Assembly: GCA_963745835.1 (NCBI GenBank)
Contig: CAVUZH010000016.1
Span: forward strand, 384,001 to 448,000
Length of the DNA stretch: 64,000 nt
Reading direction: 5' to 3'
Source: an uncultured delta proteobacterium
Lineage (GTDB): Bacteria > Desulfobacterota > Binatia > UBA9968
Shown here: piece after piece, positions 30,882 through 54,930 of the stretch
How positions within the stretch are numbered: the stretch's first letter is position 1
How the letters are laid out: each line of letters opens with the position of its first letter
Notes under the pieces: generated by a model
The model's database searches: none
Seen by the model: only the letters and a program-made list of their open reading frames with translations
What the model was told of the DNA's origin: nothing
Program-made: the position numbers and the translations under genes

Positions 30882-31046
30882 TTTCGGAATGATAGTGATC
30901 TCCGTCACAGCAATCAGCAGTTTTTTTCGTCCAGGAGGCGCTCAAATGATTGTCGCTGCACGATGTTTTATAATCTATTACTATATTGCTTCCTCAGTGA
31001 AGCCATGAGCATGAATTCCAGACATTATACTGCAACAAGGCTCATC

Positions 31047-33507: not shown

Positions 33508-33523
33508 TGGTCGAGAAGGTAGT

Positions 33524-34291
33524 TTACTGACGGATCAACAGGATCTGAGCAAACATTGCCAGATTATTTATTGCAGGCTGTAGCAGGTTTTCCAGACCGC
33601 GCCATAACCTAAAGCTCCAGCCTGGCATTAGGCTACGCAACGAAACGCCACCTGACACGAGGTAGCAGAAGGGCATCATTGGCTCAATTGCATGAATTCG
33701 CCACATGGGAAACTCACGCTCGAACTGTAGCCGATCTCTGGCAAAGACAATATGTGGCAACGCTCCATTGGCGCCGGATAATGGGCCACTGTTTGGAAAT
33801 TCCCACTGCTTTGCTTGTGGCTGAAATGGTTCATGATGCAGCCGCGTGTAAACAAGCCGCGACCAAACTGTAACCCAAGGCTCGATCATCAAAACGACAC
33901 CACCCGGACGGACACAGCGAGCCGCCTCTGTGAAAAAGCGGCGGGGTTTCGATATATGATGGAACACGTCGATCATAACAATTGCTTGCAAAGCACGGTC
34001 GGCAAATGGCAACTCTGTACCATTCAAGACAAGATCAATTCCGCGACAGTGAAAAACCTCGGACGTAATTAGGTCAGGTACGAAATCCTTCAGAAAGCCG
34101 GCCCCTGATCCTAACTCCAACACCGGCCCCTCTTTGGTTGAGAGCTTACTAGCTATCCCTGCATACCATTCATGATAGATCTGCCGTAGAAAGTTTTTTT
34201 CTCGAATAATCTGCCGTCTTAACTCTGTCGTATTTGGGTCGTCGATGTCCAACCCTCTCGTGAGAGGATGGGCGAGCAAGAACCTGATCAT
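33524..34291 (-). CDS. Class I SAM-dependent methyltransferase
   Basis: VLELGSGAG, LPFAD, DVFHH and VRPGG. Confidence 0.88.
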   Translation of the reverse strand: MIRFLLAHPLTRGLDIDDPNTTELRRQIIREKNFLRQIYHEWYAGIASKLSTKEGPVLELGSGAGFLKDFVPDLITSEVFHCRGIDLVLNGTELPFADRALQAIVMIDVFHHISKPRRFFTEAARCVRPGGVVLMIEPWVTVWSRLVYTRLHHEPFQPQAKQWEFPNSGPLSGANGALPHIVFARDRLQFEREFPMWRIHAIEPMMPFCYLVSGGVSLRSLMPGWSFRLWRGLENLLQPAINNLAMFAQILLIRQ

Positions 34292-34306
34292 CAGTTCACT
34301 AGCAAC

Positions 34307-35806: not shown

Positions 35807-36025
35807 AGTAGACGCTCCTTAATGATAGCAGCAGTTACTTGAATGGACCCGTGGTGTCGCCTAGAGCAAGGCAAATGGCGCTAGCAGTAGCACAGGCCCA
35901 GAATAAAGAACTAAACGAATGCAATTCTATTCGAACAGTAGCATGGCACTGGACTCAGTTATCCTCTACCATCGAAACTCAAGTTTCGTTGAACTGCAAG
36001 CAAGTTTCATGAAGCCAACGACCTA

Positions 36026-36838
36026 TTAAGTCCAAAAAAATTTTTCCCGCAGGAATTGAAAATAGTACGCTCCACCCCATTGTATGACTCGAAGCTTTCT
36101 TTGGCCGCCTATCCGTGGTGGTTCGTCGGCCGGTATCTCGCCGACCTTCAGTCTTCGTTTAGCCGCCCTCACCGACATTAGAGGCTCCCAACTGATCGTG
36201 GTGTGGAAAAGCTTCTCAGCGGCGGAGTAGGCTTCATCGGTATGCAACTCGAGATCGTAGATCAATTGAGTTTTGTAAGCGCGGAAGATCACCATTGAAT
36301 CGGTATAGCACCCGCCATGCAGGACGTTGATAGTTTTAGTGAACAGCCAGTTGCCGAATGCTGTAATCACGTCATCATCATCGCTCTTAGCTCCGTCCAG
36401 ATAACGGGAGCCAATCACCATGTCGTATCCTTCTTTCATTTTCTCGGTCAATGCAGGAATTCGCTCCGGAACCGAGTTGCCGTCGGGGCTGAAGGTAACG
36501 ATCACGTCTCCTTCAATGTACGGCAATACTTCAGTATAAGCGTGGCGAAATCCGCGTCTTTTCTGGACGTACACGAAGTATCCCTGTTCTTTAGCATACT
36601 CGATAGTTCCATCGGTCGAGCCGCCGTCTAAAATGATGATCTGGTGATACCATTCTTTTTTCACCCGCGGCATGATCGCCTTCATCCCGTCGATTTCGTT
36701 TAACGTCAGAACTAAAAGTGTGACTTTCCCAATCGGGAATCCAGCGGCGTGTGTCAGTTCTTCTGCCCGACGATCGCTATAGGGGTGAAGGATTGTAGAT
36801 CCATCGGTGCTCATAGAGTTCACATGATTGCGGTTCAA
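36026..36838 (-). CDS. GT2, DPM-synthase-like glycosyltransferase
   Basis: TLNEIDG, LDGGSTDGT, FSPDG, GYDMVIGSRY and RIGG; start uncertain. Confidence 0.85.
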   Translation of the reverse strand: MNRNHVNSMSTDGSTILHPYSDRRAEELTHAAGFPIGKVTLLVLTLNEIDGMKAIMPRVKKEWYHQIIILDGGSTDGTIEYAKEQGYFVYVQKRRGFRHAYTEVLPYIEGDVIVTFSPDGNSVPERIPALTEKMKEGYDMVIGSRYLDGAKSDDDDVITAFGNWLFTKTINVLHGGCYTDSMVIFRAYKTQLIYDLELHTDEAYSAAEKLFHTTISWEPLMSVRAAKRRLKVGEIPADEPPRIGGQRKLRVIQWGGAYYFQFLREKFFWT

Positions 36839-37009
36839 AGTACGTCAGCTCCAGCTTGTGAAAGACCCTATTTTCTTAACTTGATGTGGCCTAAACTTCC
36901 AGCCCCCTCGTGACCCTATCAAAGTATTTCGGTCTATAGAAATGGACGGCAAAAATCATCGCCAAACATACACCACCCTAAGGTTCCCACCGCGACGTGA
37001 TTCATGCCT

Positions 37010-37726
37010 CTAAAGCGAATAGCCAGCCTTCACTGCATCCTCACGAAACATCTTCACCGTGTCTAATGAGTATTCTTTTAGATCCTTTCCCACTAAGCCT
37101 AGCTTACCGAGGATGTCATTAGTAGCAGTGATGATGTGACAGCCGACCGTGTGAGCTTGGAAAATATTCAGCAGCTCCCGTGGACTAGCCCAAATCAGTT
37201 CAATGTTCGGATACGGCCGCAACAGTTCTACCGCTGCTGCCATGAGCGGCATAGGATCGCGACCCGAATCAGCAATGCGTCCGGCGAAGACCGATATACA
37301 GCTCGCCGGGCCCTGTGCAAGCGCTGCACTGGTCTCTCGAACCTGGTCGAGCGTCATCAGCGCGGTCACGTTGACCTTTATGCCTATCCTCGCCAGACGG
37401 CGGATCAATTCGGTAGAAGATTGTCCGAGCGTGTTGGTCACTGGTATTTTTACATATACGTTGTCGCCCCATTCGGCAATTTGACAAGCTTGGCGCTGCA
37501 TCTCTTCGAAATCGTCGGAAAACACCTCAAACGAGATAAGTTTATCGGGAATTGCACGGAGTATATCGCGCGCGAAGGCGCGATAATCCGTTATACCCGC
37601 CTTGCGCATCAAAGTCGGATTGGTCGTAAAACCTTTGATTAAATCGTTACGATACATTTCAAGCATTCCAGCTTTGTCCGCACCATCCGCAAATATTTTC
37701 ACTCGCAACTCAGCCAAAGCTGTCAT
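37010..37726 (-). CDS. Transaldolase (short TalC/FSA type)
   Basis: IFADGAD, GFTTNPTL, VYVKIP (Schiff-base Lys), VNVT and SVFAGRIAD. Confidence 0.92.
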   Translation of the reverse strand: MTALAELRVKIFADGADKAGMLEMYRNDLIKGFTTNPTLMRKAGITDYRAFARDILRAIPDKLISFEVFSDDFEEMQRQACQIAEWGDNVYVKIPVTNTLGQSSTELIRRLARIGIKVNVTALMTLDQVRETSAALAQGPASCISVFAGRIADSGRDPMPLMAAAVELLRPYPNIELIWASPRELLNIFQAHTVGCHIITATNDILGKLGLVGKDLKEYSLDTVKMFREDAVKAGYSL

Positions 37727-38256
37727 TTGGAAGCCTCCTCCAGAATGATGGCCGCAGCGGTCGTGAGATCACTGACTACCCAATCTGCCTGACAACGTTC
37801 ACTACTGCTATAGCTGCGTTCGATGAGAATCGTGGAACACCCGCAGGCGTGACCGGCCTCCACATCACTCCAACGATCCCCGATCATAAAACTCTCGTCG
37901 AGATTAAGATGCCAGTGAACCGCCGCCTGAAGTAAAAGTCCAGGTTTCGGCTTCCGACAATCGCAATTATCATTATTATCGTGATAGCAGGTTAAAACTT
38001 CTTCCACGGGCAATTCACTTCGGACTCGGTCGTTAAGCGTCTCAACGCACTGGCGCGTCTGGGTTCCACGGGCGACATCAGGCTGATTGGTAACAACAAT
38101 CAACACATAACCGGCTGCGCGTAGTGCTTGACAGGCCTGCGCAACCCCAGGCAGAAACCTGAACTCTTCGAGGCTTAGTGGCGGGTGCGGCGTGCTCTCC
38201 CGGACAAAGACGGCATTGATAACCCCGTCTCGATCCAGGAACACGGCCCTATTCAT
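37723..38256 (-). CDS. HAD-IIIA sugar-bisphosphate phosphatase (GmhB-like)
   Basis: AVFLDRDGVIN, VTNQ, CYH...CDCRKPKPG and IGDR; the start overlaps the upstream stop (ATGA). Confidence 0.9.
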   Translation of the reverse strand: MNRAVFLDRDGVINAVFVRESTPHPPLSLEEFRFLPGVAQACQALRAAGYVLIVVTNQPDVARGTQTRQCVETLNDRVRSELPVEEVLTCYHDNNDNCDCRKPKPGLLLQAAVHWHLNLDESFMIGDRWSDVEAGHACGCSTILIERSYSSSERCQADWVVSDLTTAAAIILEEASK

Positions 38257-38849
38257 CCTATTGATTCCCATTTGGTTTGCGATGCTTTTAGAAGCGGGTG
38301 CGAAACCATGAGATGCCATATAATCGATTGGAAGGCTTCGGTATGCGGTGTGACGTTCTGTGAATTGACCGTCGGTACAATCAAGCAGGCATCAGCCACT
38401 TGAGCTGTATAACCACCGTCGCGACCCACCACACCAATAATGCGCGCCCCCACTTTCCGCGAATACTCGAGAGCCTTCACCAAATTGGGGCTGATATTTT
38501 TCTCTAGGCTGCCTCCCCCGACTGAAAATACGAAAACCAAGTCATCCTTTCCGAGATGGCTTACCGCCAACCAGCCTTCGAAAACGCCAGCCCAACCTTC
38601 ATCATTGATGCGGGCGGTTAACTCGGATACGTTATCTGTCGGTGCATAGGCTTCAATCCCGACTATTTTGCGAAAATCGTTGACAGCATGAGACGCGTTG
38701 CCCGCACTTCCCCCCAACCCTAAAATGAATAATCGACCGCCCCTTGAACGCGTACTTTTCACCAACTCGACCATGCGCTCCACCGCGTCTCCATCTAATT
38801 GCTCAATGATTTTCTTAGCCTCAGAAAGAAACTCTGCGATGAAAGTCAT
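38253..38849 (-). CDS. SIS-domain phosphosugar isomerase (GmhA-like)
   Basis: LFILGLGGSAGNASHAVNDF, TARIND, SVGGG, SPNLV, GRDGG and HTE. Confidence 0.88.
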   Translation of the reverse strand: MTFIAEFLSEAKKIIEQLDGDAVERMVELVKSTRSRGGRLFILGLGGSAGNASHAVNDFRKIVGIEAYAPTDNVSELTARINDEGWAGVFEGWLAVSHLGKDDLVFVFSVGGGSLEKNISPNLVKALEYSRKVGARIIGVVGRDGGYTAQVADACLIVPTVNSQNVTPHTEAFQSIIWHLMVSHPLLKASQTKWESIG

Positions 38850-38862
38850 ACGACCTCATATC

Positions 38863-39591
38863 CTAACGGACTCTGTCAGAACGTGAACGCAGATGGCGGC
38901 GCATTTCCTCGATCCCCTCAAAGGATCCGATCTCGTAAAAGCGGTGACGGACCTCAAGAGCAGCTAACTCGCGACTTGCCAACAACTCCTGATATACAGC
39001 TGCCAAGTCATAGGCTTGATTGTCCGGAATCTTTTCAAATGCAGACCTCCTAAAGACTCCTAAGCCATAGTCGATATGACGCATGGCTGAGGTCTGCCGT
39101 TGTTTGTCGTAGACGCAAAGAGCGCCATCCTTGTATTCAACATTACTTCTGTCCCAAAATCCGTCGTTTCTGTAGACCGTCATCAAAGCCGGTTTGCCGC
39201 TTGCCTCGAAAACCGACTGTACTTCGCGGTAGTCACAGTCCAGATATGAATCGCCGTACAAAACGAAGAAGGTGTCTCCCAACAAGGGCAATGCCTTTTT
39301 AATCGCCCCCGCGGTGCCGAGTAGGTTCGGTCCATCAAACGAGTACTGAATTTCGAGCTTAAACTCTTCCCCGCCACCGATTTTTTCGCGAATCATTTCA
39401 CCTAGATGCCCGACGCAGATGATGACCTTCTCAATCCCATGAGCACGTAATAAACGTAAATCGTGAGCTAGGAAGGGTTCTCCATCGATATCAATCAACG
39501 CCTTTGGAACAGTCTCAGTTAATGGTTGCAATCGTGTCGCCAAACCACCCGCGAGAACCGCAACTGGAAACATCCTCTGACTCACAATCAC
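38863..39591 (-). CDS. Sugar-1-phosphate nucleotidyltransferase (HddC-like)
   Basis: LAGGLATRL, PKAL, LGTAGA and YGDSY. Confidence 0.9.
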   Translation of the reverse strand: MIVSQRMFPVAVLAGGLATRLQPLTETVPKALIDIDGEPFLAHDLRLLRAHGIEKVIICVGHLGEMIREKIGGGEEFKLEIQYSFDGPNLLGTAGAIKKALPLLGDTFFVLYGDSYLDCDYREVQSVFEASGKPALMTVYRNDGFWDRSNVEYKDGALCVYDKQRQTSAMRHIDYGLGVFRRSAFEKIPDNQAYDLAAVYQELLASRELAALEVRHRFYEIGSFEGIEEMRRHLRSRSDRVR

Positions 39592-40565
39592 GCGATCACT
39601 TTTGTACCTTCAAAATCGAAACGGAAACGGACTTCTTCCAATCCCGCGCCTCTCATCGCTCGCCTTAAGGCCATTTTGTCTTCAGCATAAAACATCAAAA
39701 ACCCGCCTCCCCCAGCGCCGATCAATTTCCCACCCATCGCCCCATTCTCTCGGGCTACTTCATACCAATGATCAATTTGGTTATTAGTCATAACGCCGGA
39801 ACGCTTCTTCTTATGCTCCCAATGCACATTCATCAACTCCGCAAATTTTCTCAGATCTCCTCCCTCCAATGCTTCTTTGCTCTCTCGACCGATTTCTTTT
39901 ACAAAATGAAGGTTAGTGATCATCTCCTTATCGTTTTGCCTGCTTTTCACGTCCTGCTCTCTGAGAATTTCAGATGCAGATCTTGAGTAACCTGTAAAAA
40001 ATAGCAATAAATTTTCCTCAAGGTTGTACAGTGTATCTGTATCGATCTCCAGCGGAGAAGCTTCGACCTGACCGTTTGGCAAAAAACGAAAAAAAGTGAC
40101 ACCTCCGTATGCAGCGATATACTGATCCTGTTTTCCGATTGGTTCTTTCAAAACATCCATCTCGACGTAGCAGGCCTGCTGCGCCAGATCCTCCGGATGA
40201 ATAAGATTTTTTTTAAGAGTGTGCAGAGCCTTTAGCAAAGCTGTAGTGAAGCTGCCGGAGGAACCCAGACCCGTACCGGCCGGGATATCGGCCATACTCG
40301 TGATCTCTAGATAAGGCGCCTCTACTTTCGTTAATCTCAGGGTTTCCCGGATGAGAGGATGTTGTACTTCGTCTACTGATTTAACTCGCTCCATCTTTGA
40401 GTATTTAATGATCAGTTCTTCGACAAAGGTTTGATGGAGCGTGATATAAACGTGCTTGTCAATTGCCGCTGCAAGCACGAAACCGCTATGCTCGCGGTAA
40501 TAGGAGGGTAAGTCAGTTCCTCCGCCACCCAAAGAGACGCGCAAAGGGCTGCGAGTAATAATCAT
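39588..40565 (-). CDS. GHMP sugar-phosphate kinase (HddA-like)
   Basis: PLRVSLGGGGTD, PAGTGLGSSG, GKQDQY and GGKLIGAGGGGF. Confidence 0.92.
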   Translation of the reverse strand: MIITRSPLRVSLGGGGTDLPSYYREHSGFVLAAAIDKHVYITLHQTFVEELIIKYSKMERVKSVDEVQHPLIRETLRLTKVEAPYLEITSMADIPAGTGLGSSGSFTTALLKALHTLKKNLIHPEDLAQQACYVEMDVLKEPIGKQDQYIAAYGGVTFFRFLPNGQVEASPLEIDTDTLYNLEENLLLFFTGYSRSASEILREQDVKSRQNDKEMITNLHFVKEIGRESKEALEGGDLRKFAELMNVHWEHKKKRSGVMTNNQIDHWYEVARENGAMGGKLIGAGGGGFLMFYAEDKMALRRAMRGAGLEEVRFRFDFEGTKVIA

Positions 40566-41539
40566 AGAGCGGAAATTTTATAGATATGTTCGACGACCTG
40601 CAGGGCCGCTCGGGCATCATACAGATCAGCTGAGGGGCGACGTTGTAGCCGAATGTCTTCCAAAAAATCGGCAAACTCATTATTCCACGAGGTGTCCCGC
40701 ATCGGATATTCCCAACTGGTTATCTCCGGCGGTCCCATCTGAGGTAGCATCCGATAGTAGATGAGTCTTTCGACACCGTAACTACCACCCAAGCCTTCTA
40801 TTTGCAGTTTCCCTAAACGGCCAAAGATCTCGAACGAAAAAAGGTTCTTCCATTCTGTGCAACTGGCATGCAGAAAGGCAACCTGCTGCCGGGCACTCCT
40901 TAGAAGCATGAATCCGTTGTCCTCTACCGGCATATCCCAATAAAAAGTCGAAGCAAAGCCCTCGACATTTACAATGTCGCCTAGAAACCAACGTGCAAGG
41001 TCGATCAAGTGGACTCCCTGATCGATGAGTTCACCGCCGCCCGACTGTTCCGGATTGGCTCGCCATTCTTTTTCATAGCCGACGCGCCCGCCATGTCCAT
41101 AACGGCCGCGTATATACATGAGTTCACCAATCGCCCCGGATACGCACAATTCCTTAGCCTTGCAGAGCGCTGGGTGGTAGCGGTGATTAAACCCAACCCG
41201 CACTAATAGATTGAGGCGTTCTGCCATCTCTATTACAGGGTCGAGTTCTGCCACGGAACGCGCTGCCGGCTTCTCAACGAGCACATGCTTCCCCGCGGCG
41301 ATGGCGGCCAACATGATTTTTACGAGCAGATCGTTTGTCGCCGAGACGATGACAACGTCCACATTCTTTCGTTCAAGCACAACTCGCCAATCAGTCGCCG
41401 ACACCGCGCCTGATACCGTTCGCGCAAGCGCTTCCGCTCGCGTCGACAGAACGTCTGCGCACGCTACCAACCGACTGCCAGCGAGCGAAGATGCGCGCTT
41501 TTGTCCAACGCGGCCACAACCGATGATGGCAACGTTCAT
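40562..41539 (-). CDS. Gfo/Idh/MocA oxidoreductase
   Basis: IIGCGRVG, KHVLVEKP, VGFNHRY and GGGELIDQGVH. Confidence 0.92.
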   Translation of the reverse strand: MNVAIIGCGRVGQKRASSLAGSRLVACADVLSTRAEALARTVSGAVSATDWRVVLERKNVDVVIVSATNDLLVKIMLAAIAAGKHVLVEKPAARSVAELDPVIEMAERLNLLVRVGFNHRYHPALCKAKELCVSGAIGELMYIRGRYGHGGRVGYEKEWRANPEQSGGGELIDQGVHLIDLARWFLGDIVNVEGFASTFYWDMPVEDNGFMLLRSARQQVAFLHASCTEWKNLFSFEIFGRLGKLQIEGLGGSYGVERLIYYRMLPQMGPPEITSWEYPMRDTSWNNEFADFLEDIRLQRRPSADLYDARAALQVVEHIYKISAL

Positions 41540-42411
41540 GTTTTTGTTTTAGACCATTCTAACCCGCGATCTTTAGGAACAATGCGACGAAGTGTATAGA
41601 TGTCCGTTCCGCCGAACTCGGCGACTCGTTGTGCAAAGGTGTCCCAAGGATCCCAAACAGCGCTAATGAGTCTGCCGGTAATGCCGTCACTATCATTAGA
41701 GACTAAGAAAACACATAGCGCAGCACCCTTCTCTAGAGGCGTACCGCCGCGTTTTTTTTGTTCAAGAGCTTGTTCGTAGAAGGCGTTGCCAACCTTCTCT
41801 GGTCCAGCCTCCAAGACTTCATCGAGCAAGCGCGTATTGAGCGGCCCCGGTGCAACGGCATTAACATTAATACCGCAGTCCCGTGTCTCCTCAGCCATAG
41901 TTTCGGTAAGTCGCACCACGGCTGCCTTGGAAGCTGCATAGGCGCTGAAGCGGGGCAAAGGCGCCGTTGCCCCGCCGCCGGAAAGATTAACGATCTTGCC
42001 GTAGTTCTGCTTTCGGAAAACAGGAAGCAGAGCGCGGCAGAGAAGCGCCGTGCCCACCAGATTTATTTCAATAGCTCGTAGCCATTCTTGCAGATCTACT
42101 TCTTCAATAAGACCTTTTGGCCCGTATGCACCGGCATTGTTTATCAAACCATCGATTCGCGGCAGATTCTTCAGAGCGAATTCAACTAAGTTCCTGACAT
42201 CATCGGGCTTTGAAACGTCTGCCGATAGCGCCAACACCTGCTGCCCGGCTCGCGCCCGCAACCCTAATTCCGCTTGTGCTGCGGCTAATAAGAGCGGATC
42301 GCGGGCACAAACGACAATGTTGGCACCCTCCATTAAGCAGGCTTCAGCAATAGCTTTGCCTAAGCCCTGACTAGCACCCGTTATCAATATGCCACGGCGC
42401 TCTAGTTTCAC
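41536..42411 (-). CDS. Short-chain dehydrogenase/reductase
   Basis: ITGASQGLG, NNAG, YAASK and VNAVAPG. Confidence 0.92.
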   Translation of the reverse strand: MKLERRGILITGASQGLGKAIAEACLMEGANIVVCARDPLLLAAAQAELGLRARAGQQVLALSADVSKPDDVRNLVEFALKNLPRIDGLINNAGAYGPKGLIEEVDLQEWLRAIEINLVGTALLCRALLPVFRKQNYGKIVNLSGGGATAPLPRFSAYAASKAAVVRLTETMAEETRDCGINVNAVAPGPLNTRLLDEVLEAGPEKVGNAFYEQALEQKKRGGTPLEKGAALCVFLVSNDSDGITGRLISAVWDPWDTFAQRVAEFGGTDIYTLRRIVPKDRGLEWSKTKT

Positions 42412-42420
42412 GACAGTCCC

Positions 42421-43710
42421 CTATACTTTGCCAACAGCGATATAGCGCAAGCGAGAATCGGCGCCGAGTGTCGTACGCAGAAATCGATTGGGGTCTAACA
42501 CGACAGGTGTACGCATCTGGCGCACACAATCGTCAGACGATAAAGATTTAAAGGCCGGCCAATCATTTGTCACGATCAATGCGTCCGCCTGCTGTAAGGC
42601 TTCATTGGCTGTGGCGCAAAGGGTAATATACTGCTCTAGATCAGATGGGAGCTGAGACACACCTGGATCGTTAGCCCTAACTCGCACTCCCCGTTGGGCC
42701 AACCAGATGCATAGCTCAATTGCGCTGGAACGCCGCAGCGTGTCGGTCCCAGGCTTGTAGGTTAATCCCAGCACGACCACAGTCTTGCCTGATAACTCAC
42801 CAAAGAGTTCCTGTAGTTTACGTCTTGGCCAAGCCTTGTGCTCGTCATTACTAATGCGTATCGCGGTCATCAAATGAGCAGACACTCTTTTCTGTTGACC
42901 GAGCTGACTCAGAAAATTAACGTCGCGCGCCAACGTGCCTCCCGCAAAGGCGCTACCGGGACTCAGGTAAGCCGATGGTCCGATGCGACTATCACTCCTC
43001 AGACCCCGTTCGACTTCCTTGACGTCGGCACCTACATGCTCACACAATGTCGCCAGCTCGTTAACAAAGACTACAGACGCAGCTAAGAAGGCATTCAACG
43101 CGTGTTTGGTCATCTCGGCCGATTCGACCGACATCCATTCAAGTCGTCTACAAAACGGGCTCAGCAACTGACTCAGGCGCGCCTGGTCTGATTGGTGACG
43201 CACTCCGATAACGATGCGCTCCGGACAACGAAAAGCATCAAGCGCCTTTCCGACTCGAAGATTCTCTTGCGCGTAAGCGAAGCTGACACGCCGCTCCGAG
43301 CAATTTAAACGGAACCCTGCTTCGGCCGAAGCGGTAAAACCTACCGGGACCTGTGATGAAACCAAAACCATCGCTTTGTCTGACAAATGGGAAAACAAAG
43401 CTGCCATTTGACGTGACACAAAACCAACGTCAGCAATATCGTTGTCATCGACAGGCGTATCGAAAGTTATCCAAACAATATCTGCTCCATTGACAGCGGA
43501 TGCGATGTCGTTAGTGAAAGACAGCCTGCCGGCGGAGAACCCTGCGTGTATTAGTTCTGCAAGGCCCGTTTCAAAAACCGGTGGCTGACCGCGACTCAGA
43601 TTGGAAATTACATTCGCATCGGGATCATAGCCCACGGTTGTAAAATGCTCCGCCACAGAAGCTGCTATGACGGAACCGAGATGCCAAAGACCGCATACAC
43701 AAACCTTCAT
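42421..43710 (-). CDS. UDP-glucose/GDP-mannose dehydrogenase-family protein lacking the catalytic Cys
   Basis: GLWHLG, DTP, SQVPVG, ENLRVG, AEMTKHALN, GSAFAGGTLARD (canonical is GGxCxxKD) and GLTYKPGTD. Confidence 0.88.
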   Translation of the reverse strand: MKVCVCGLWHLGSVIAASVAEHFTTVGYDPDANVISNLSRGQPPVFETGLAELIHAGFSAGRLSFTNDIASAVNGADIVWITFDTPVDDNDIADVGFVSRQMAALFSHLSDKAMVLVSSQVPVGFTASAEAGFRLNCSERRVSFAYAQENLRVGKALDAFRCPERIVIGVRHQSDQARLSQLLSPFCRRLEWMSVESAEMTKHALNAFLAASVVFVNELATLCEHVGADVKEVERGLRSDSRIGPSAYLSPGSAFAGGTLARDVNFLSQLGQQKRVSAHLMTAIRISNDEHKAWPRRKLQELFGELSGKTVVVLGLTYKPGTDTLRRSSAIELCIWLAQRGVRVRANDPGVSQLPSDLEQYITLCATANEALQQADALIVTNDWPAFKSLSSDDCVRQMRTPVVLDPNRFLRTTLGADSRLRYIAVGKV

Positions 43711-44663
43711 GAACGCCGATCCAGCACCCAAGGATTCTCTTGCAAATAGCGAAGCGTGCGGAGGATTCCCTCCTGAATGCTCAGCTTAGGGCGCCAACCT
43801 AGAGTACGAATCCGGGAGCAGTCAAGAAAGATGAACGGATTGTCTCCAACCCAGCCACGTGAACCGCCAGAATATGTGATCTTGGGGTTAAGCCCCAAAT
43901 GAGCAGTAATCCAACGGAGTGAATCATTAACCGAACAATACTCTGCGGTACCTAGATTAAAAAGATTCACCTTTTCGTGAGCCCGCTCAATCGCCAGGAG
44001 CATAGCGTCGATACAGTCCTGAACATATAAGTACGACTTGCGTTGACTGCCGTCGCCAAGAACACACAATTCGTTAGGATTAGATCGAAGCTGCTTGTAG
44101 AAATCGAATATGTGTCCGTGCGTATAACGTTCCCCCAACATGGAGACGAAACGAAAAATCCATGCCTGAAAGTCAAACCCTTCGCAGTGGGCTTCAATGA
44201 ATCCTTCGCTCGCCAGTTTGGCCGCTCCATAAAGAGATGTTTGAATGGGAATGTTGGTTTCTTCCGGCGTAGGGATTATCTGAGCTTCCCCGTAAATGGA
44301 AGCAGTCGAAGTAAAAGCAATCTGTCTCACCCCATTGGCACGCATGGCGTCCAAAACATTAAACGTCACAATTGTGTTCTGCTCCAAGTCCCTCCGCGGA
44401 TGTTCCGTCCCAAAACGCACATCGGCATTGGCGGCTAGATGAAAAACAAAATTTGCGCCCGCCATAGCCCGGCTCAAGGATTCCAAATCCAGTGCATCGC
44501 CTCGGACCAGGCTGAAACTAGGATTCCTCAGACAGTCTTCGATGAACTCCATCTGACCTGTGCTGAAATTGTCATATCCAACCACTGAATGACCGTTGAG
44601 CAACAAACGGTCGGCCAGGTTGCTGCCAACATAGCCCGCACAGCCTGTTACAAAATAACGCAA
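43707..44663 (-). CDS. NAD-dependent nucleotide-sugar epimerase/dehydratase
   Basis: VTGCAGYVG, HLAA, YGAAK and GDGSQRKSYLYV. Confidence 0.92.
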   Translation of the reverse strand: MRYFVTGCAGYVGSNLADRLLLNGHSVVGYDNFSTGQMEFIEDCLRNPSFSLVRGDALDLESLSRAMAGANFVFHLAANADVRFGTEHPRRDLEQNTIVTFNVLDAMRANGVRQIAFTSTASIYGEAQIIPTPEETNIPIQTSLYGAAKLASEGFIEAHCEGFDFQAWIFRFVSMLGERYTHGHIFDFYKQLRSNPNELCVLGDGSQRKSYLYVQDCIDAMLLAIERAHEKVNLFNLGTAEYCSVNDSLRWITAHLGLNPKITYSGGSRGWVGDNPFIFLDCSRIRTLGWRPKLSIQEGILRTLRYLQENPWVLDRRS

Positions 44664-44684
44664 ACAAGTCTCCGTCCTTGAAGC

Positions 44685-45521
44685 TTATCTCTTTTGTTTT
44701 CGGTTCCGGGTTTGCCGAAATATCCCGGCGCTTCCTTTTTGGATCGTTCCGAATCTATCAGTTCCGCTTTGCTTAGAGACTGCAAGCGCATGACAATGTG
44801 CAAACCGGATTCTGAAAATGTCGAGCCCGTTGCGAATATTCCCGCTGACCAACCGCAGCCTGCTGTCCCCATCGTCGCGCCACCTTACTGGAACCTGCGC
44901 GATCCTATAGCCACGAAGGTGCGCTAAGTATAAAACCTCAACATCAAACATATAGCCGTCTATTATCTGTCGTCCAAAAAGATCGATTGCGACATGGCGT
45001 TTAAAAAATTTGAATCCGCATTGAGTGTCAACGATGTCACGAAGGCCCACCAACGCATGTACAAACAAGCGAAAGCCTTTTGAGCCGAGCCGTCGATAAA
45101 GTGGCTGAGATTGTTCGATGCTTGACTCGGAAAGGGCACGAGAACCAATCACGATATCGTAGCCGTTACGGATTACGTCCTCGATCTTGTCCAGCTCATC
45201 AATCGGAGTCTTGTTGTCCGCGTCGGCAAATCCTATCATTTCGCCGCTGGCCATAGCGATTGCATGGCGAATGCCGTATCCTTTGCCCCGACGTTCAACA
45301 TTGCCAGTGACCTTTAACGCCGGAAGAGACACGGCCATCTCAGTCACCAATTCACGCGTGCCGTCATCTCCATCGGCGGACACAATGATCTCATAGCTCA
45401 TATTTCGCTGCCGAAAATAAGATATCGCATCCTCGATGGTCTGCCCAATACTGCTGACTTCGTTATACGCAGGCAGGATCAAACTGATATGTGGATTGTT
45501 TCTCACCAGCGCCGTACTCAT
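44685..45521 (-). CDS. Dolichyl/polyprenyl-phosphate glycosyltransferase (Alg5/DPG-synthase-like GT2)
   Basis: SLILPAYNE, GKGYGIR, FADAD, IGSRA, DTQCGFK and FDVE; start moved to ATG 45521. Confidence 0.88.
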   Translation of the reverse strand: MSTALVRNNPHISLILPAYNEVSSIGQTIEDAISYFRQRNMSYEIIVSADGDDGTRELVTEMAVSLPALKVTGNVERRGKGYGIRHAIAMASGEMIGFADADNKTPIDELDKIEDVIRNGYDIVIGSRALSESSIEQSQPLYRRLGSKGFRLFVHALVGLRDIVDTQCGFKFFKRHVAIDLFGRQIIDGYMFDVEVLYLAHLRGYRIAQVPVRWRDDGDSRLRLVSGNIRNGLDIFRIRFAHCHALAVSKQSGTDRFGTIQKGSAGIFRQTRNRKQKR

Positions 45522-45544
45522 GAAGGCATTCGGGAACCGTTCTT

Positions 45545-48253
45545 TCAAGCCACGGAATTTTGTAATTGGTATTTCTCTGCAATTCTTGGATAAATCCAAA
45601 GAACCAACGTGATCAACAAAAACAACCCGATGGCCGTCTTAGCTACTATGACGCTTGCCGTAAACGTTACGGGTTCAAATTTAAAAATGATGCGGCTTTG
45701 GCCAGTGCCGACTGTCGTCGCCATAAACTGAAAATTTGCCGGGATAATCGTGCCTTGTTTCCCGTTTATAAACACCCTCCAGCCCTCGTCATACGAATCG
45801 CCAAAAAAAAGCACCGCCGGTTTTTTGGTGATGATATTCAGCTCCACTCTACTCGGGGTCGCGTGGGTGGTTTGAACCATAACAGCTTTCTCTGGATACT
45901 CCGACGAATCGATAGCTGGCTCATCTCGTAAAACAATCGTTGTCAGTGGATTGAACTCGACCGCTTTCAATCGCGCGAGAGCTGCGGTCTCGTTTTCGAT
46001 CGCCTCAAAATGAGTGAAAAGCATAAACCTGGATAGTGCGTTGGGGCGGATCGACACCTCGCCGGCTTTACCAACGTCGTATCGTGCACCAACGAGATCT
46101 AAAAAACGTGGGTCTTCAATGGTATGAGCGATGGAAGACGCTAAGGCCTGATCCCCATAATCGAAATTACGGATGAAAGAAGTGTATTTTTTTGAAAACT
46201 GTGAATTGAGTCCGCCGTATAATCTCACTCCATAATAATTAGGAATATTCGTCTCAATTTCGTTGCCCGATAACCCAAGCACTAAATGCGGATGATTGAC
46301 GCGGTAATTTTCGAGGTCCAATGCTACTTTAGATTCTGCTCCAAGGATCTCGCCTGGAGTCGTCAGAGCCGGATAGAGCGACTTTCTCTTAAAAAATGGT
46401 TCCGTAACAATGCGGCTGTATATCTTATTAAAGGGCAATAAATCGCCAAGCGAAACGAGCAAAAGCACCAAAAGAAAATATTTCGTTTCAAGCTTTCGCG
46501 TCTTAAGAGACGAAAGTAAAATTACCAATAGAACACTAACTAAAACGAATCGGGCTGAGCCCATCACTACCAACAGAAACGATTCAGGCATGGATGGATG
46601 CTTACTGAACCCGGTAAACGGGATTATCAGCACACCCAAGAGTACGAGCAACGCAACTGCCGTCGCAATACCAGAGACATTTCTAAAACGAGAATTCATC
46701 ACAAAAAATAGAACTGTCAGAAGGAGAGTTGAAATGAAGGCAAGGCTGGTCAGCAAATACATTGCGCCCAATCGAAATACGTATGAAGATCCTTTCTCTT
46801 GAAGAAAATTCTTCACCTCCTGCGGCAGAATTAGATAATAGATTCCAGCAACACTCAATAAGATAAGTGCTGCAACTAGTCTCTTGAGCGGTGGTCTAAC
46901 CAAGGCATTTTCAAACAGCAAATACGAAACAAACAGCAAAACAAGGGTTATGACGCCGGCGAGCCTGACATTACCCAATATATGCGGGTAGACCTTTAGC
47001 CAAACGGAAACTACTCCTAGCAGAACCAAGCCGCAGACAAGAAGAAAAATAAGAATTTTTTCTGTGCTTACCGAAGTTGGATGTTCTTCAATATGTTTAG
47101 CTATGTAACCGACCATCAGGCACATCCCCATCGGCAGCAAGTAGAGTGAACCCAATGGATGGAGTAACGGAAAGAATCCGATATTGAATACGCCGGCTAT
47201 CGGTTGAACATTCATTAACCACAGCCAAATGGGTAAGAACATGAGCGTGAGGATTTTTATTGGTTTGTTTTTTCGTATCGCTATCAATGACCAGATGACA
47301 AGCGATATAGAAGCAGCTCCCATGTAGAAACTTGCAGCACCGTGAATGTGACCCTTAAAGCCTAAAGCTGCAAGAACAGGTTCAGATGAAGCGAAGTTGA
47401 CGCCGAGAGTTTCGGGGATAAACGTAAAATAATGAAGAAAAATAACGTCTTGAAAACCCAAGTTTGCGATACTGTCAAGCAGCCGGGTGCCATCCCTGAG
47501 AGCTTCGGCAAACGGTAAAAGGCGTACGGCACCAATCGACGCACTAATCATCACTGCCAATGCAAAAACTCCCCAATACTTTGCCTGGCAGACGATTGCC
47601 GCAGGGTGAGTGAGCGTGAAGAACGCGTAGAGGAGCATGACGCTCAACATGATATATGCCACATAAACAATGTGGCCGGAGAGAAACATCGTTCCGATGC
47701 TAAGAGTCAACAAAGCGAAGGAAATGTAGAGTTTTCGCTGACCCATCGTGAACAGCAGGTATGTCGTGATCGTGGCAAGCAGCATGGTCGTCAGGGCGGG
47801 GTACAGTGTAGTCCCGAGGAACATAAGGCTACACAATTGATAGTTTAGTGACGAGAAAAAGGCCCATTTTCTGCTACCTAAGGCAGCAGTAAAAGCAAGA
47901 AAGCCAAACACACCGACGAGCCACATCTCAATGAAGATTCGAACAGTCAGTCCCAAGTGAAAGTACTGCTCCGGAAGCAGGAATAGGATCCAGTTGAACG
48001 GGGAATAGACGTAGTTATGCGTGCTGCCTGTAAAGTTAATTCCGCAGGCAATATAAGGGTTCCATAAACCGAGGTCCCCCTGAACTAAAGCTCGTAGAGA
48101 GAAGAAGTAGTTGGGCACGAGATGAAACTTATTATCACTACTGGCAATAAGCTTCATCCCCCTCAATAAAAAGGGCGAGAAGAAGAATGCGATTAGTGTC
48201 AGGTGTGCAACGATCACGAATCTCGTTTTAGACTCCGGTGATCGTACAAACAA
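45545..48253 (-). CDS. YfhO-family polytopic membrane protein (GT-C)
   Basis: LWNPYIACG, YSPF, many TM segments, and C-terminal DSYDEGWRVFING...AN...G...IIFKFEP. Confidence 0.82.
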   Translation of the reverse strand: MFVRSPESKTRFVIVAHLTLIAFFFSPFLLRGMKLIASSDNKFHLVPNYFFSLRALVQGDLGLWNPYIACGINFTGSTHNYVYSPFNWILFLLPEQYFHLGLTVRIFIEMWLVGVFGFLAFTAALGSRKWAFFSSLNYQLCSLMFLGTTLYPALTTMLLATITTYLLFTMGQRKLYISFALLTLSIGTMFLSGHIVYVAYIMLSVMLLYAFFTLTHPAAIVCQAKYWGVFALAVMISASIGAVRLLPFAEALRDGTRLLDSIANLGFQDVIFLHYFTFIPETLGVNFASSEPVLAALGFKGHIHGAASFYMGAASISLVIWSLIAIRKNKPIKILTLMFLPIWLWLMNVQPIAGVFNIGFFPLLHPLGSLYLLPMGMCLMVGYIAKHIEEHPTSVSTEKILIFLLVCGLVLLGVVSVWLKVYPHILGNVRLAGVITLVLLFVSYLLFENALVRPPLKRLVAALILLSVAGIYYLILPQEVKNFLQEKGSSYVFRLGAMYLLTSLAFISTLLLTVLFFVMNSRFRNVSGIATAVALLVLLGVLIIPFTGFSKHPSMPESFLLVVMGSARFVLVSVLLVILLSSLKTRKLETKYFLLVLLLVSLGDLLPFNKIYSRIVTEPFFKRKSLYPALTTPGEILGAESKVALDLENYRVNHPHLVLGLSGNEIETNIPNYYGVRLYGGLNSQFSKKYTSFIRNFDYGDQALASSIAHTIEDPRFLDLVGARYDVGKAGEVSIRPNALSRFMLFTHFEAIENETAALARLKAVEFNPLTTIVLRDEPAIDSSEYPEKAVMVQTTHATPSRVELNIITKKPAVLFFGDSYDEGWRVFINGKQGTIIPANFQFMATTVGTGQSRIIFKFEPVTFTASVIVAKTAIGLFLLITLVLWIYPRIAEKYQLQNSVA

Positions 48254-48486
48254 TTGCCTGGCACAAACGGTTGAAACGCATTTTATTGGACATGGATCGT
48301 ACTAACAAGATAACACTGTGATTCGGAATCCGTAGGATTAAACTAAATGATTGCTCGCCGCCATTGCGTTGGTTGCTCCATAAACTCGACAATGAAACGA
48401 CGATTCGGCCAGCTAGCCAACAAATGTTAAGGACTTCAGGACAATCAAAGGGATTCTACAGAGCAGAAAATCGGATCTGATGTTGC

Positions 48487-48589
48487 GTCTAAAATAATGA
48501 TGATACGCACATTCTCTTTTCACCCGCGGCATGATCGCCTTCATGCCCTCGACTTCATTCAGCGCTAAAACTAGCAGAGTCACTTTCAC
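48487..48589 (-). pseudogene. 5' remnant of a GT2 paralogous to 36026..36838
   Basis: GTG overlapping the NUDIX stop gives VKVTLLVLALNEVEGMKAIMPRVKRE, versus KVTLLVLTLNEIDGMKAIMPRVKKE in the intact gene. 28 bp are identical (48517..48544 = 36658..36685). Confidence 0.85.
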
Positions 48590-49221
48590 ACTGGACCGTC
48601 CAGAGCCTGGTTCTCAAATCGACTGTACATAAAGAATGCTATAACTGTTGATGGGTCCTGGACCTCAGAACGGAGTATCATTTCTTCGACTTCTTGAATA
48701 TTGAAAAACCGGAGTTCTCGGTGCCCGATTTCCGCGGGCGCATACTCCCGTTCCTTTACACACTCGGTCGCCGCAAACAGCTGCACTCTGGCCGCCAAAA
48801 TTCCCCCATCCGGAGTGATAAAGCCCAACGATCGAATTGCTTCGGATTTGCAATCGAGTCCTGTCTCTTCCTTTAGTTCTCGACCCGCTGCGCTCGCAGA
48901 CACCTCTTGCCGATCGATAAAACCTCGCGGAATCTCCCATGAGTATTGTCCAATGGGATGACGGTAAATACGGATTAGGCCGATTTTGCCGTCAACGATC
49001 GGCAGAACCGCCACTCCGGTGACGAGATTAGAGGCGACACGTTTTGGCGCAACCACCAGATAATCTCTGATGGTCATGCGGCCTTGTGAAGTCAGTTCGT
49101 CAAAGAAGATATTAAACTGGCTGTTCTCGCAGACAAGTTTTCGCTTTTTTTGCTCCGGCTGCTGAGGTTTCGCACCCATCGAATCAGCAGATCGTCGCTT
49201 TCGCACAGAATCGCGTCGCAC
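48586..49221 (-). CDS. NUDIX hydrolase (ADP-ribose/NDP-sugar pyrophosphatase-like)
   Basis: YRHP and the Nudix box WEIPRG.......AAGRELKEETG. Confidence 0.9.
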   Translation of the reverse strand: MRRDSVRKRRSADSMGAKPQQPEQKKRKLVCENSQFNIFFDELTSQGRMTIRDYLVVAPKRVASNLVTGVAVLPIVDGKIGLIRIYRHPIGQYSWEIPRGFIDRQEVSASAAGRELKEETGLDCKSEAIRSLGFITPDGGILAARVQLFAATECVKEREYAPAEIGHRELRFFNIQEVEEMILRSEVQDPSTVIAFFMYSRFENQALDGPV

Positions 49222-49232
49222 GCACTAAGGGT

Positions 49233-50747
49233 TCAGGCTGCAGCCAAGATTCTTCTGACTAATCGTTGTGACGCCATTTCGCGGATGTGCTCAGCCGTAA
49301 GCGAACCGTATTTTGCCTCGATCATCCGCAAATACTGTGGACTGCTGAAATACCGGTGAAAAGCCTCATCACGAAACTTCAGCACGGCCGCGCCTGATAG
49401 GTACTTCGTGGGCAAGGGCAAGGTGTCGATGGCATGCTGCGAATAGCCGGACCACTTCTCCGGGAGCGGCCAACTTTCTCTCATCGCCAGGTTGTATAAC
49501 TGGGATCCAGGATAGGCCATGGCAGAATAGAAGTTCGCGAATTCACAGTTGAGTTCGAGAGCTAAATTAAGCGTCGACTCCATGCTCTCCAGATCATCTT
49601 CCGGAAGACCAAAAATATAGTTGGCGATCACGTTAACATCGGCTGCTCTCACGTTCTCCAAAGTGCGAAAGATCACCTCCTGATCGAATCCTTTATCCAC
49701 GTCATCACGCACCCGATCGCTAGCCGCCTCGATGCCAAACGCCAGCCAGTTGAAGCCTGCGCGTTTGAGCTTTTCCAGCATCCCGTCCTTGACCGTGTCG
49801 ACGCGCGCGTAAGCCCAGATATTCAGGTCGTAACCGCGTTCGATAATCGCATCGCATATCCCAAGTATGTGACGTGAATTCAGGACGAACATCTCGTCGG
49901 CTATCTTAATATTACGAATGCCATACTGGTTGACAAGTTTATCGATCTGGGCGATCACCGCCTGCGCGCTCCAGAAGCGATAGCTATTGACGCTTTCCTT
50001 CCATCCCGCTTCCTTTTCTCCGGTCTTAAACGGCGCTTGAATACAGCAGAAACTGCAATGAAAAGGACAGCCGAAGGTTGTGTAGAACGAGGCATAGGGC
50101 TCTCGTTGAAGATCTCCGAAGCAGTGCCAGTTGTGCGCTCGGTACTTGTCCATAGGCAAAAGATCCCATGCGAGTTCCGGGATTTCGTCATCTAGATTTT
50201 TGACCAGTGGAGCTGCGGGTGTGGAGATGACAACGCCGTCTTTCCAATAACAGATTCCCCGCACCTTCGAATAGTCCGGTGATGTAGATTTTGCCGCCTG
50301 CAACAAATCGACGAGAGTATAGGGTCCTTCTCCGGTGCACACGAAATCCGCCGCTTCCTCCCGCAACGTACGCTCCGGAAGCGCCGCGACATGTCCGCCC
50401 ACCAGCGCTAATTTGCGATTCGGATTGAGTTCTTTAAGCGCATCGCAGATCAAGCCGGAGACCGTCATGTTTTGGGTAGAGGCCGATGGTTGATGGCCAT
50501 AAACGACAATCACCGCCAATCGAGGATCCATGTCCTCGATCCGCGTCGCGGTTTCTTCGGGTGTTAGATTCTCCGCTTCCGCATCTACGATTTGAACCGA
50601 GAAACCGTGTTTACGAACAAACGTTGCCAACAAGCTTGCCCATACCGGAGGCTCGATGGCCGCCAGCTTCGATCCCAAAGATTGATAAACCTGCATGCGG
50701 GTTCCGGGGTGAACCAGTACCAGGTCCAATTGGCCATTACGAGACAT
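49233..50747 (-). CDS. Cobalamin-binding radical SAM enzyme (class B methyltransferase-like)
   Basis: N-terminal B12-binding domain (EPP, GGHV, GEG); CPFHCSFC; GIEA; IFGLPED; YPGS. Confidence 0.9.
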   Translation of the reverse strand: MSRNGQLDLVLVHPGTRMQVYQSLGSKLAAIEPPVWASLLATFVRKHGFSVQIVDAEAENLTPEETATRIEDMDPRLAVIVVYGHQPSASTQNMTVSGLICDALKELNPNRKLALVGGHVAALPERTLREEAADFVCTGEGPYTLVDLLQAAKSTSPDYSKVRGICYWKDGVVISTPAAPLVKNLDDEIPELAWDLLPMDKYRAHNWHCFGDLQREPYASFYTTFGCPFHCSFCCIQAPFKTGEKEAGWKESVNSYRFWSAQAVIAQIDKLVNQYGIRNIKIADEMFVLNSRHILGICDAIIERGYDLNIWAYARVDTVKDGMLEKLKRAGFNWLAFGIEAASDRVRDDVDKGFDQEVIFRTLENVRAADVNVIANYIFGLPEDDLESMESTLNLALELNCEFANFYSAMAYPGSQLYNLAMRESWPLPEKWSGYSQHAIDTLPLPTKYLSGAAVLKFRDEAFHRYFSSPQYLRMIEAKYGSLTAEHIREMASQRLVRRILAAA

Positions 50748-51948: not shown

Positions 51949-51955
51949 GGTTCGA

Positions 51956-53941: not shown

Positions 53942-53945
53942 GAGG

Positions 53946-54882: not shown

Positions 54883-54930
54883 TTATAAGCGAATAGAAAT
54901 CGAGGGTGCCAAGCTGTAGGGCTGGTCCGT

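Follow-up and report, generated by a model that had tools for sequence, protein, structure and literature searches.

A conserved nine-gene cassette with lincosamide-type sugar enzyme families in an envelope-glycan locus of an uncultured Binatia bacterium

The window analyzed here, a 64-kb stretch of DNA from an uncultured delta proteobacterium of the Binatia, contains an eleven-gene run at positions 37010-48253, of which the nine sugar genes at 37010-44663 (hereafter the cassette) form a real, conserved and uncharacterised unit. Their enzyme families recall the octose part of lincosamide biosynthesis, which in the table of PMC4351081 comprises lmbR (transaldolase), lmbN (C8 isomerase), lmbP (kinase) and lmbK (phosphatase), together with lmbO (guanylyltransferase), lmbM (epimerase), lmbL (dehydrogenase), lmbZ (oxidoreductase) and lmbS (aminotransferase); in the excerpted text of PMC12945683, GDP-octose is converted to GDP-lincosamide by LmbM, LmbL, CcbZ and CcbS. 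We give an even chance to the reading that the cassette specifies a lincosamide-type route to a nucleoside diphosphate (NDP)-octose that feeds lipid-carrier glycosylation. What was observed directly is which families are present, how the operon is built, that the unit is conserved, that one enzyme lacks its catalytic cysteine, and that the gene fusions described below exist.

All eleven open reading frames (ORFs) lie co-directionally on the minus strand and mostly overlap (Table 1). The initial annotation had reported a coupled run of these families, and Pfam and NCBIfam profile scans of the window ORFs confirmed all eleven in place; structural relatives were sought by sequence searches of the Protein Data Bank (PDB). 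Seven of the ten gene junctions have possible 4-nt start/stop overlaps and the remaining three are gaps of 9-21 nt; the junction between the transaldolase and HAD phosphatase genes is a 4-nt overlap, and a gap of 171 nt lies beyond the transaldolase gene. Scans for promoters and terminators across 35800-49300 returned counts at or below the shuffled expectation. Pfam scans of the cassette detected neither an aminotransferase nor an acetyltransferase, and the sole DegT-family gene (50737-52041) belongs to a second set of sugar genes upstream.

Table 1. Features of the window, with positions in the 64-kb stretch and the profiles on which the family assignments rest (SDR, short-chain dehydrogenase/reductase; GT1 and GT2, glycosyltransferase families 1 and 2).
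Feature	Position	Strand	Profile
YfhO-family polytopic membrane protein, 902 residues, candidate GT-C transferase	45545-48253	-	Pfam YfhO
GT2, candidate polyprenol-phosphate sugar synthase	44685-45599 (true start probably 45548 or 45521)	-	Pfam Glycos_transf_2
Extended-SDR epimerase, probably GDP-sugar 4-epimerase, LmbM-like role	43707-44663	-	Pfam Epimerase
Cys-less UDP-glucose/GDP-mannose dehydrogenase homologue (Ugd-like), LmbL-like role	42421-43731 (true start probably 43710)	-	TIGR03026
Classical SDR oxidoreductase, partner of the Ugd-like protein, candidate ketoreductase	41536-42411	-	Pfam adh_short
Gfo/Idh/MocA oxidoreductase, LmbZ-like role	40562-41539	-	Pfam GFO_IDH_MocA N- and C-terminal domains
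GHMP anomeric sugar-phosphate kinase, HddA/WcbL/LmbP-like	39588-40565	-	best NCBIfam match HddA
Sugar-1-phosphate nucleotidyltransferase, HddC/LmbO-like role	38863-39591	-	Pfam NTP_transferase
SIS-domain ketose/aldose phosphate isomerase, GmhA/LmbN-like	38253-38849	-	Pfam SIS_2; best NCBIfam match GmhA
HAD-IIIA sugar bisphosphate phosphatase, GmhB/LmbK-like	37723-38319 (true start probably 38256)	-	PRK08942, TIGR01656
Small transaldolase, TIGR02134 type, LmbR-like role	37010-37726	-	TIGR02134
Second set: NudE-like Nudix hydrolase, B12-binding radical SAM enzyme, RfbH-like DegT-family enzyme, pyruvate dehydrogenase E1 beta and alpha homologues, Fcl-like gene, GHMP kinase, GmhB-like HAD, nucleotidyltransferase, epimerase	48586-58248	-	
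Type II secretion set: GspD, M-like, PilN-like, K, J, G, F, E; with LptD and an LptA-like gene	6004-17865 and 58459-60778		

A genome scan with the window transaldolase retrieved 80 loci from many phyla, which were sorted by tblastn with the window proteins. All nine genes are present, at 45-81% identity, in 14 loci, and the Ugd-like gene or the SDR is missing in six more. A five-gene core (transaldolase, HAD, SIS, nucleotidyltransferase and kinase) stands alone within the retrieved DNA in 15 loci, a second cassette type (variant B, discussed below) occupies six, and 21 combine the transaldolase, HAD and SIS genes with other genes. The remainder consist of five partial cassettes and 13 loci with the transaldolase alone, five of which have less than 2 kb of upstream flank. 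The Gfo/Idh/MocA protein is 55-71% identical across the all-nine loci. Comparison of gene order in 13 all-nine loci from other phyla (one locus, L007, was left out of this count) showed the arrangement of the window in 12 of them and a rearrangement in the thirteenth, L022.

An independent sample was drawn by tblastn of plasmid records with the Ugd-like protein as the query. Only five records exceed 46% identity, and the next match drops to 34%, which marks the edge of the subfamily. Rhizobium jaguaris CCGE525 (L082, pRCCGE525c) and Rhizobium sp. CB3060 (L083, pCB3060_1) carry all nine genes on chromids, both in the order GT2-GtrA-epimerase-Ugd-SDR-Gfo-kinase-nucleotidyltransferase-SIS-HAD-transaldolase, and plasmid 3 of Lawsonia intracellularis (L081, NC_008014.1; three records) carries eight of the nine. 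All three species, reached through the Ugd-like protein and not through the transaldolase, also possess the transaldolase, SIS and HAD genes. Because the order is preserved in 12 of 13 all-nine loci and in the two Rhizobium chromids, the run is not a chance arrangement, and the nine sugar genes form a single conserved unit. A quick tree of the transaldolases branches out of step with taxonomy, which points to horizontal spread. Carriers that are cultured, or grown in cell culture, include L. intracellularis, R. jaguaris, Rhizobium sp. CB3060 and Bradyrhizobium sp. 138 (L042); a nucleotide search of 37010-40565 against complete Escherichia coli genomes gave no match. The Lawsonia cassette is flanked by two hypothetical proteins of ∼1090 residues and is split by a gene for an MprF-like membrane domain, and an IS66 transposase gene follows the cassette in R. 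jaguaris.

The transaldolase reaches the curated score for its family (326 bits on TIGR02134, cut-off 282). Alignment with structure 1vpx shows that it keeps the Lys of the VKIPVT motif, presumably the Schiff-base residue, as well as the stretches TTNP, SfEv, NVT, SvFaGR and aSpR, which we take to hold substrate-binding residues. Its homologues at 58-80% identity are spread over many phyla. The transaldolase, SIS and HAD genes occur together in 62 of the 80 loci, and two proteins (P0039 and P0060) are HAD-transaldolase fusions whose parts are 66-71% identical to the window HAD and 79% identical to the window transaldolase. This adjacency and the fusions support the view that the transaldolase is an integral member of the cassette.

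The Ugd-like protein matches the nucleotide sugar dehydrogenase profile TIGR03026 (274 bits) and falls far short of the TuaD equivalog (246 bits, cut-off 700). In an alignment with the UDP-glucose dehydrogenase 4a7p, the catalytic Cys of GGSCFPKD is matched by a Thr in the sequence GGTLARD. A search of 1.84 billion representative sequences provided the best 150 relatives (273-485 bits), which together with the window protein make 151 aligned rows; the Cys column holds Thr in 143 of these rows and Cys in one. The subfamily also replaces the usual first glycine motif with GLWHLG and keeps the Lys and Asn of EMxKHAxNAFLA. By alignment, then, the Ugd-like protein belongs to a large and distinct Cys-less subfamily, and the exchange of the catalytic Cys for Thr argues that it is not an ordinary uronic-acid-forming dehydrogenase. 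The initial annotation had paired this protein with the Gfo/Idh/MocA oxidoreductase in the manner of LmbL and LmbZ. In the five fusion proteins that include a Ugd-like domain (P0128, P0129, P0157, P0207 and P0217), however, the partner is a classical SDR, joined in either order and 35-49% identical to the window SDR, which indicates that the two neighboring genes work together.

The classical SDR scores 179 bits on Pfam adh_short and the epimerase 155 bits on Pfam Epimerase. The best PDB relatives of the epimerase are 3ehe (283 bits) and 8rdg, 8rdh and 8rdi (277-279 bits), followed by 3icp and 3aw9 (188-283 bits across these entries), and 3EHE, 8RDG and 3AW9 are placed in a promiscuous GDP-sugar 4-epimerase subgroup in the excerpted text of PMC12171764. 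This kinship hints at a GDP-linked substrate and at inversion of C4. The Gfo/Idh/MocA protein is closest to 4h3v (93 bits), with levoglucosan dehydrogenase 6a3f and inositol dehydrogenases at about 90 bits.

Variant B (L051, L060, L063, L066, L069 and L071; for example, L063:8660-16600) contains the SIS, HAD and transaldolase genes, two epimerase/dehydratase genes, a fusion of HldE-like cytidylyltransferase and PfkB domains, and genes for a Gfo/Idh/MocA oxidoreductase and a Ugd-like protein. The HldE-like bifunctional enzyme takes the place of the GHMP kinase and the nucleotidyltransferase, and the Ugd-like protein is again Cys-less, with Asn at the Cys column (GGNLERD). The transaldolase module and the Ugd-like/Gfo pair thus stay linked when the activation chemistry changes, and this argues for a transaldolase-derived sugar as the substrate of the tailoring enzymes.

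On the lincosamide model, we infer the substrates, carbon number, nucleotide (probably GDP), product and acceptor as follows. The transaldolase would transfer a C3 unit from fructose-6-phosphate or sedoheptulose-7-phosphate to ribose-5-phosphate, giving octulose-8-phosphate; LmbR, in the work of Sasaki et al. from 2012, reportedly joins a C3 unit to ribose-5-phosphate. The SIS isomerase would convert octulose-8-phosphate to an aldose 8-phosphate, the GHMP kinase would phosphorylate C1, the HAD phosphatase would remove the terminal phosphate, and the nucleotidyltransferase would activate the sugar. The epimerase-like SDR, the Gfo/Idh/MocA protein and the Cys-less Ugd-like protein with its partner SDR would then remodel the ring and the side chain through oxidation, dehydration and reduction, yielding a deoxy-octose with a hydroxyl at the position of the lincosamine amine. 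The GT2 would place this sugar on polyprenol phosphate and, after flipping, the YfhO-family GT-C protein would pass it to a glycan of the diderm envelope.

The GT2 (73 bits on Pfam Glycos_transf_2) has as its best NCBIfam matches dolichyl-phosphate hexose transferase, AglJ, ArnC and PpgS, all far below their cut-offs, and its best PDB match is the Pyrococcus furiosus Dol-P-Man synthase 5mlz (64 bits), followed by 6yv7 (labelled merely ‘Glycosyl transferase, family 2’), ArnC and GtrB chains. No membrane helix was predicted for it. Relatives of this GT2 at 54-63% identity adjoin the cassette in five loci (L008, L018, L022, L028 and L070), and a GtrB-like GT2 with GtrA immediately precedes the cassette in L011, L082 and L083 and is found close by in L016, L019 and L050, so that a lipid-carrier route, as judged from these neighbors, is plausible and recurs among cassette loci. 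The 902-residue protein is a member of the YfhO family and a candidate GT-C transferase. It exceeds the Pfam YfhO cut-off (44.4 bits, cut-off 28.5) through its C-terminal 80 residues only, 36 homologues were found, of which the nearest are 32-47% identical, and PF09586 is recognized in 34 of the 36. A crude hydropathy scan suggests about 15 hydrophobic segments between residues 10 and 609, a soluble stretch of ∼250 residues and a last helix at 861-890, a topology in keeping with the family; Asp40, just past the first helix, is kept in 30 of 36 aligned rows. A sequence search of the PDB with this protein gave no match, and the large membrane proteins that adjoin the cassette in other loci are not its homologues.

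The principal rival to the NDP-octose reading, serious though unlikely in our estimate, is a modified NDP-heptose delivered to the envelope in the same manner. The transaldolase would merely boost the supply of sedoheptulose-7-phosphate from fructose-6-phosphate and erythrose-4-phosphate, divergent GmhA, HddA, GmhB and HddC enzymes would activate it, and the C7 sugar would be tailored, for example, by side-chain oxidation or deoxygenation and by epimerization. For the kinase, the isomerase and the phosphatase, the closest relatives among solved structures or curated families are indeed heptose enzymes. The kinase scores 167 bits on NCBIfam HddA (cut-off 600), and its best PDB matches are the heptose kinases 3k85 (169 bits), WcbL 4usk (156 bits) and 4n3o (139 bits). 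The isomerase scores 54 bits on TIGR00441 gmhA (cut-off 209) with GmhA 5ltz as its best PDB match (45 bits), and it keeps the His of GGSAxxxxH while the next Glu is aligned to Asp. The phosphatase scores 129 bits on PRK08942 GmhB (cut-off 178) and 128 bits on TIGR01656. The nucleotidyltransferase scores 79 bits on HddC (cut-off 300) and 121 bits on MurU, and the PDB ranks 4y7t, which we take to be MurU, at 87 bits and the HddC-type 5xhw at 63 bits. None of the four core proteins reaches the curated equivalog score for GmhA, HddA, GmhB or HddC, and scores this far below the cut-offs speak against the heptose reading; the cut-off test is nevertheless weak evidence because the proteins of the window's second set also fall below the cut-offs. 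That second set, with a kinase, phosphatase and nucleotidyltransferase of its own, scores higher than the cassette on GmhB (172 bits, cut-off 178) and HddC (143 bits, with mannose-1-phosphate guanylyltransferase at 183 bits), a point against the heptose reading.

Several observations on the transaldolase weigh against the octose, and most of them in favor of the heptose: the protein is an ordinary-looking member of TIGR02134 that passes the cut-off and keeps the usual motifs, and sedoheptulose-7-phosphate, the heptose precursor, is the textbook transaldolase product. We take the NCBI description of TIGR02134 to be that of the pentose-phosphate transaldolase of Staphylococcus and Coxiella; a search of the literature on Coxiella lipopolysaccharide (LPS) found no paper that ties a transaldolase to its LPS genes. 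Among 63 cassette-linked transaldolases, 88 columns are at least 90% conserved, and only one of these differs, weakly, in eight unlinked homologues; this comparison yielded no cassette-specific column worth naming. Relatives at 47-53% identity are found outside such cassettes in Staphylococcus, Lactobacillus, Treponema and Streptomyces plasmids, and the Streptomyces plasmid gene (49% identity) is flanked by genes for a hexitol phosphatase and a sugar-lactone oxidase and does not belong to a lincosamide cluster. On the other side, sedoheptulose-7-phosphate is a central metabolite, and the word transaldolase was found in none of 15 papers on the HddA/HddC/WcbL GDP-heptose genes, yet here the transaldolase adjoins the SIS and HAD genes in most loci and is sometimes fused to the HAD. 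Finally, the sole characterized pathway with the whole family set yields an octose.

Further points must be counted against the NDP-octose route. No feature of the sequences fixes C8 over C7, and the nucleotidyltransferase ranks MurU, a uridylyltransferase, above HddC. A ribose-5-phosphate isomerase gene is near the transaldolase in just one of the 80 loci, L052:5166-9878, in which the five-gene core of a metagenome-assembled genome labelled Candidatus Kuenenia stuttgartiensis is accompanied by ribose-5-phosphate isomerase A two genes past the transaldolase; in that single locus the neighbor speaks for the octose route. For the delivery step, the YfhO gene is specific to the window genome, with no match at ≥50% query coverage in any of the 80 loci, and no flippase was recognized in the window by a hydropathy screen together with a GtrA search (no ORF of ≤220 residues has ≥3 hydrophobic segments, and tblastn of the window with four GtrA proteins gave no match). 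The cassette also has a classical SDR where the lincosamide pathway has the aminotransferase LmbS and does not encode the full lincosamine route. PDB searches with nine of the eleven window proteins returned no Lmb or Ccb sugar enzyme among their matches. The lincosamide-like interpretation made by the initial annotation is partly supported, through the family-for-family match, the conserved unit, the integral transaldolase, a Ugd-like protein of non-uronic type and the recurrent link to lipid-carrier glycosylation, and its eight-carbon product is a hypothesis.

Improbable, in our judgment, is a different acceptor such as a hexose-6-phosphate, which would lead to a C9 or an unusual higher-carbon or carbocyclic sugar, with the aldehyde formed by the Cys-less Ugd-like protein used in further chemistry. 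Transaldolases pass C3 units to various aldose phosphates, a Cys-less dehydrogenase should go no further than the aldehyde or should work on a secondary alcohol, and the fusion of the Ugd-like protein to the SDR rather than to Gfo/Idh/MocA suggests that the tailoring may depart from the lincosamide route. No cassette gene, however, indicates a hexose-phosphate acceptor, and the one characterized precedent for this gene set reportedly uses ribose-5-phosphate. Still less credible is the view that two pathways lie side by side, a GDP-heptose module running from the transaldolase to the kinase and a module of the UDP-glucuronic or UDP-2,3-diacetamido-uronic acid type made up of the epimerase, Ugd-like, SDR and Gfo/Idh/MocA genes. 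The Pfam families alone would permit it, and Ugd and Gfo/Idh/MocA pairs presumably occur in WbpA/WbpB-type routes. Nevertheless, the Ugd-like protein lacks the catalytic Cys required for a uronic acid, the Gfo/Idh/MocA protein scores only about 50 bits against 3q2k and 3q2i, which we take to be WlbA, compared with 93 bits for its best match, the cassette is without the aminotransferase and acetyltransferase, and the two halves travel together in the 14 all-nine loci and, with a different activating enzyme, in the six of variant B.

The idea that the locus is a lincosamide-type antibiotic gene cluster is hardly tenable, since only the common sugar-pathway families speak for it, an aminotransferase is missing from the cassette, and Pfam scans of the window returned no nonribosomal peptide synthetase (NRPS)-like adenylation or carrier proteins. 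The window neighbors, moreover, are glycosyltransferases, methyltransferases, LptD and other envelope genes, and in some other genomes the cassette is accompanied by Wzz, a protein with an O-antigen ligase domain, ABC-2 transporters or GtrA. As the initial annotation had supposed, this is a locus for envelope glycans and not an antibiotic cluster.

LptD, an LptA-like protein and a full type II secretion set, all encoded in the window, identify the host as a diderm. Among at least 120 relatives of the window GspE, the seven with an organism name are all ‘Candidatus Binatia bacterium’ (82-89% identity), in line with a host that is probably one of the Binatia. In a Gram-negative host, a teichoic acid is a less likely target than LPS or some other glycan of the outer surface. 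The genes downstream of the cassette (24605-36838) encode a GT1, a methyltransferase, a methyltransferase-GT2 fusion, a further GT2 and several membrane proteins that Pfam leaves unmatched. Four minus-strand ORFs of 396-657 residues at 25884-33507 go unmatched in Pfam even at E = 0.5 (with 4-11 hydrophobic segments in three of the four); lying among glycosyltransferase and methyltransferase genes, all four are candidates for polymerase, flippase or transferase genes. The G+C content is 0.45-0.49 at 26001-36000 and 46001-48000 and 0.52-0.56 in the flanks; this dip spans the unannotated glycan genes and the YfhO gene and would fit horizontally acquired envelope genes.

Upstream of the cassette lies the second sugar-nucleotide set, which has no isomerase of its own. 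It includes homologues of both pyruvate dehydrogenase E1 subunits, the type of protein to which we take AviB1 and AviB2 to belong. The two-component AviB1/AviB2 complex adds a two-carbon branch from pyruvate in avilamycin A biosynthesis, according to the excerpted text of PMC4753412, and by analogy the second set may make a branched-chain deoxy sugar. Its GDP-L-fucose synthase-like gene is split into two overlapping ORFs at 53946-54882 on the minus strand (54289-54882, covering profile positions 2-186, and 53946-54320, covering positions 186-305), through a frameshift or a sequencing error. Elsewhere in the window, at 19763-23754, are two large proteins with dockerin-type and FG-GAP repeats, which in one of them are combined with a matrixin (M10) peptidase domain; both match TcdB_toxin_midN in part, over the repeat-rich stretch that also gives the FG-GAP and dockerin matches. 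Neither tRNA genes nor Rfam families were detected in the whole window.

A broader proposal, to which we give somewhat less than an even chance, is that a nucleotide-activated linear octose, probably deoxy and thus the hydroxy counterpart of lincosamine, is a widespread undescribed unit of envelope glycans. The nine-gene cassette that makes it would be mobile, with a range that extends from Acidobacteriota and Planctomycetota to Rhizobium and Lawsonia, and the lincosamide sugar pathway would be its specialized offshoot. In the literature searched, with subscription journals and supplements outside the search, the Lmb sugar genes and their octose were found only in work on lincomycin and celesticetin, and the only octoses tied to bacterial polysaccharides were branched ones such as yersiniose. 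The octoses named for Gram-negative O-antigens in the excerpted text of PMC4753412 are likewise all branched, with yersiniose as an example. The S-layer O-glycan of Candidatus Kuenenia stuttgartiensis contains an unidentified residue of 174.09 Da that is interpreted as a dimethyl-deoxyhexose in the excerpted text of PMC5088730. As a speculative lead, arithmetic on this residue gives C8H14O4, a formula that would also fit a trideoxy-octose residue.

If the product is a C8 sugar, it would represent a new class of monosaccharide for envelope glycobiology and an evolutionary source for the lincosamide pathway. A function for the large Cys-less branch of the UDP-glucose dehydrogenases would follow, and the rare YfhO-type transferase of this Gram-negative organism would gain a donor sugar. 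The cassette would serve as the genetic marker and is already present in dozens of lineages, among them cultured rhizobia and a pathogen of pigs. A heptose product would still imply an uncharacterised tailoring route but would be far less surprising.

Among known systems, the UDP-glucose/GDP-mannose 6-dehydrogenases share with the Ugd-like protein the three domains, the Lys and Asn of EMxKHAxNAFLA and the Asp of the (K/R)D motif, and differ from it at the catalytic Cys, for which it has Thr, and in the first glycine-rich motif, for which it has GLWHLG. The best solved relatives of the cassette epimerase, matched over its full length at 277-283 bits, are the GDP-sugar 4-epimerases of Pyrococcus horikoshii (PhGal4E_1, 8RDG) and Archaeoglobus fulgidus (3EHE); these promiscuous enzymes, in contrast, are archaeal and, in the excerpted text of PMC12171764, were studied on GDP-L-fucose and GDP-glucose. 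With the three-component systems GtrA/GtrB/GtrC of enterobacterial O-antigens, CsbB/GtcA/YfhO of Gram-positive teichoic acids and ArnC/ArnT, the window shares a YfhO-family protein, in its case paired with a GT2 that is a candidate polyprenol-phosphate sugar synthase. It differs from them in having no recognized flippase and a GT2 without C-terminal membrane helices, and its YfhO homologue is rare (36 relatives found) and stands in a diderm, where the donor sugar would be new.

The GDP-D-glycero-α-D-manno-heptose pathway of capsule, O-antigen and S-layer glycan clusters uses the same four families (GmhA, HddA/WcbL, GmhB and HddC) as the cassette, which adds to them a dedicated transaldolase, the Cys-less Ugd-like protein with its SDR and the Gfo/Idh/MocA oxidoreductase, and whose four proteins lie well below the NCBIfam equivalog cut-offs of that pathway. 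The likeness to the lincosamide pathway extends further, in that eight of the nine cassette families match, at the family level only and as that pathway is tabulated in the source cited above, lmbR, lmbN, lmbP, lmbK, lmbO, lmbM, lmbL and lmbZ, and both routes end in a nucleotide sugar. The cassette differs in having no carrier-protein fusions, NRPS or thiol-conjugation genes, and it resides instead in the envelope-glycan loci of diderms from many phyla, near genes for candidate polyprenol-phosphate GT2 enzymes, GtrA and GT-C-like proteins.

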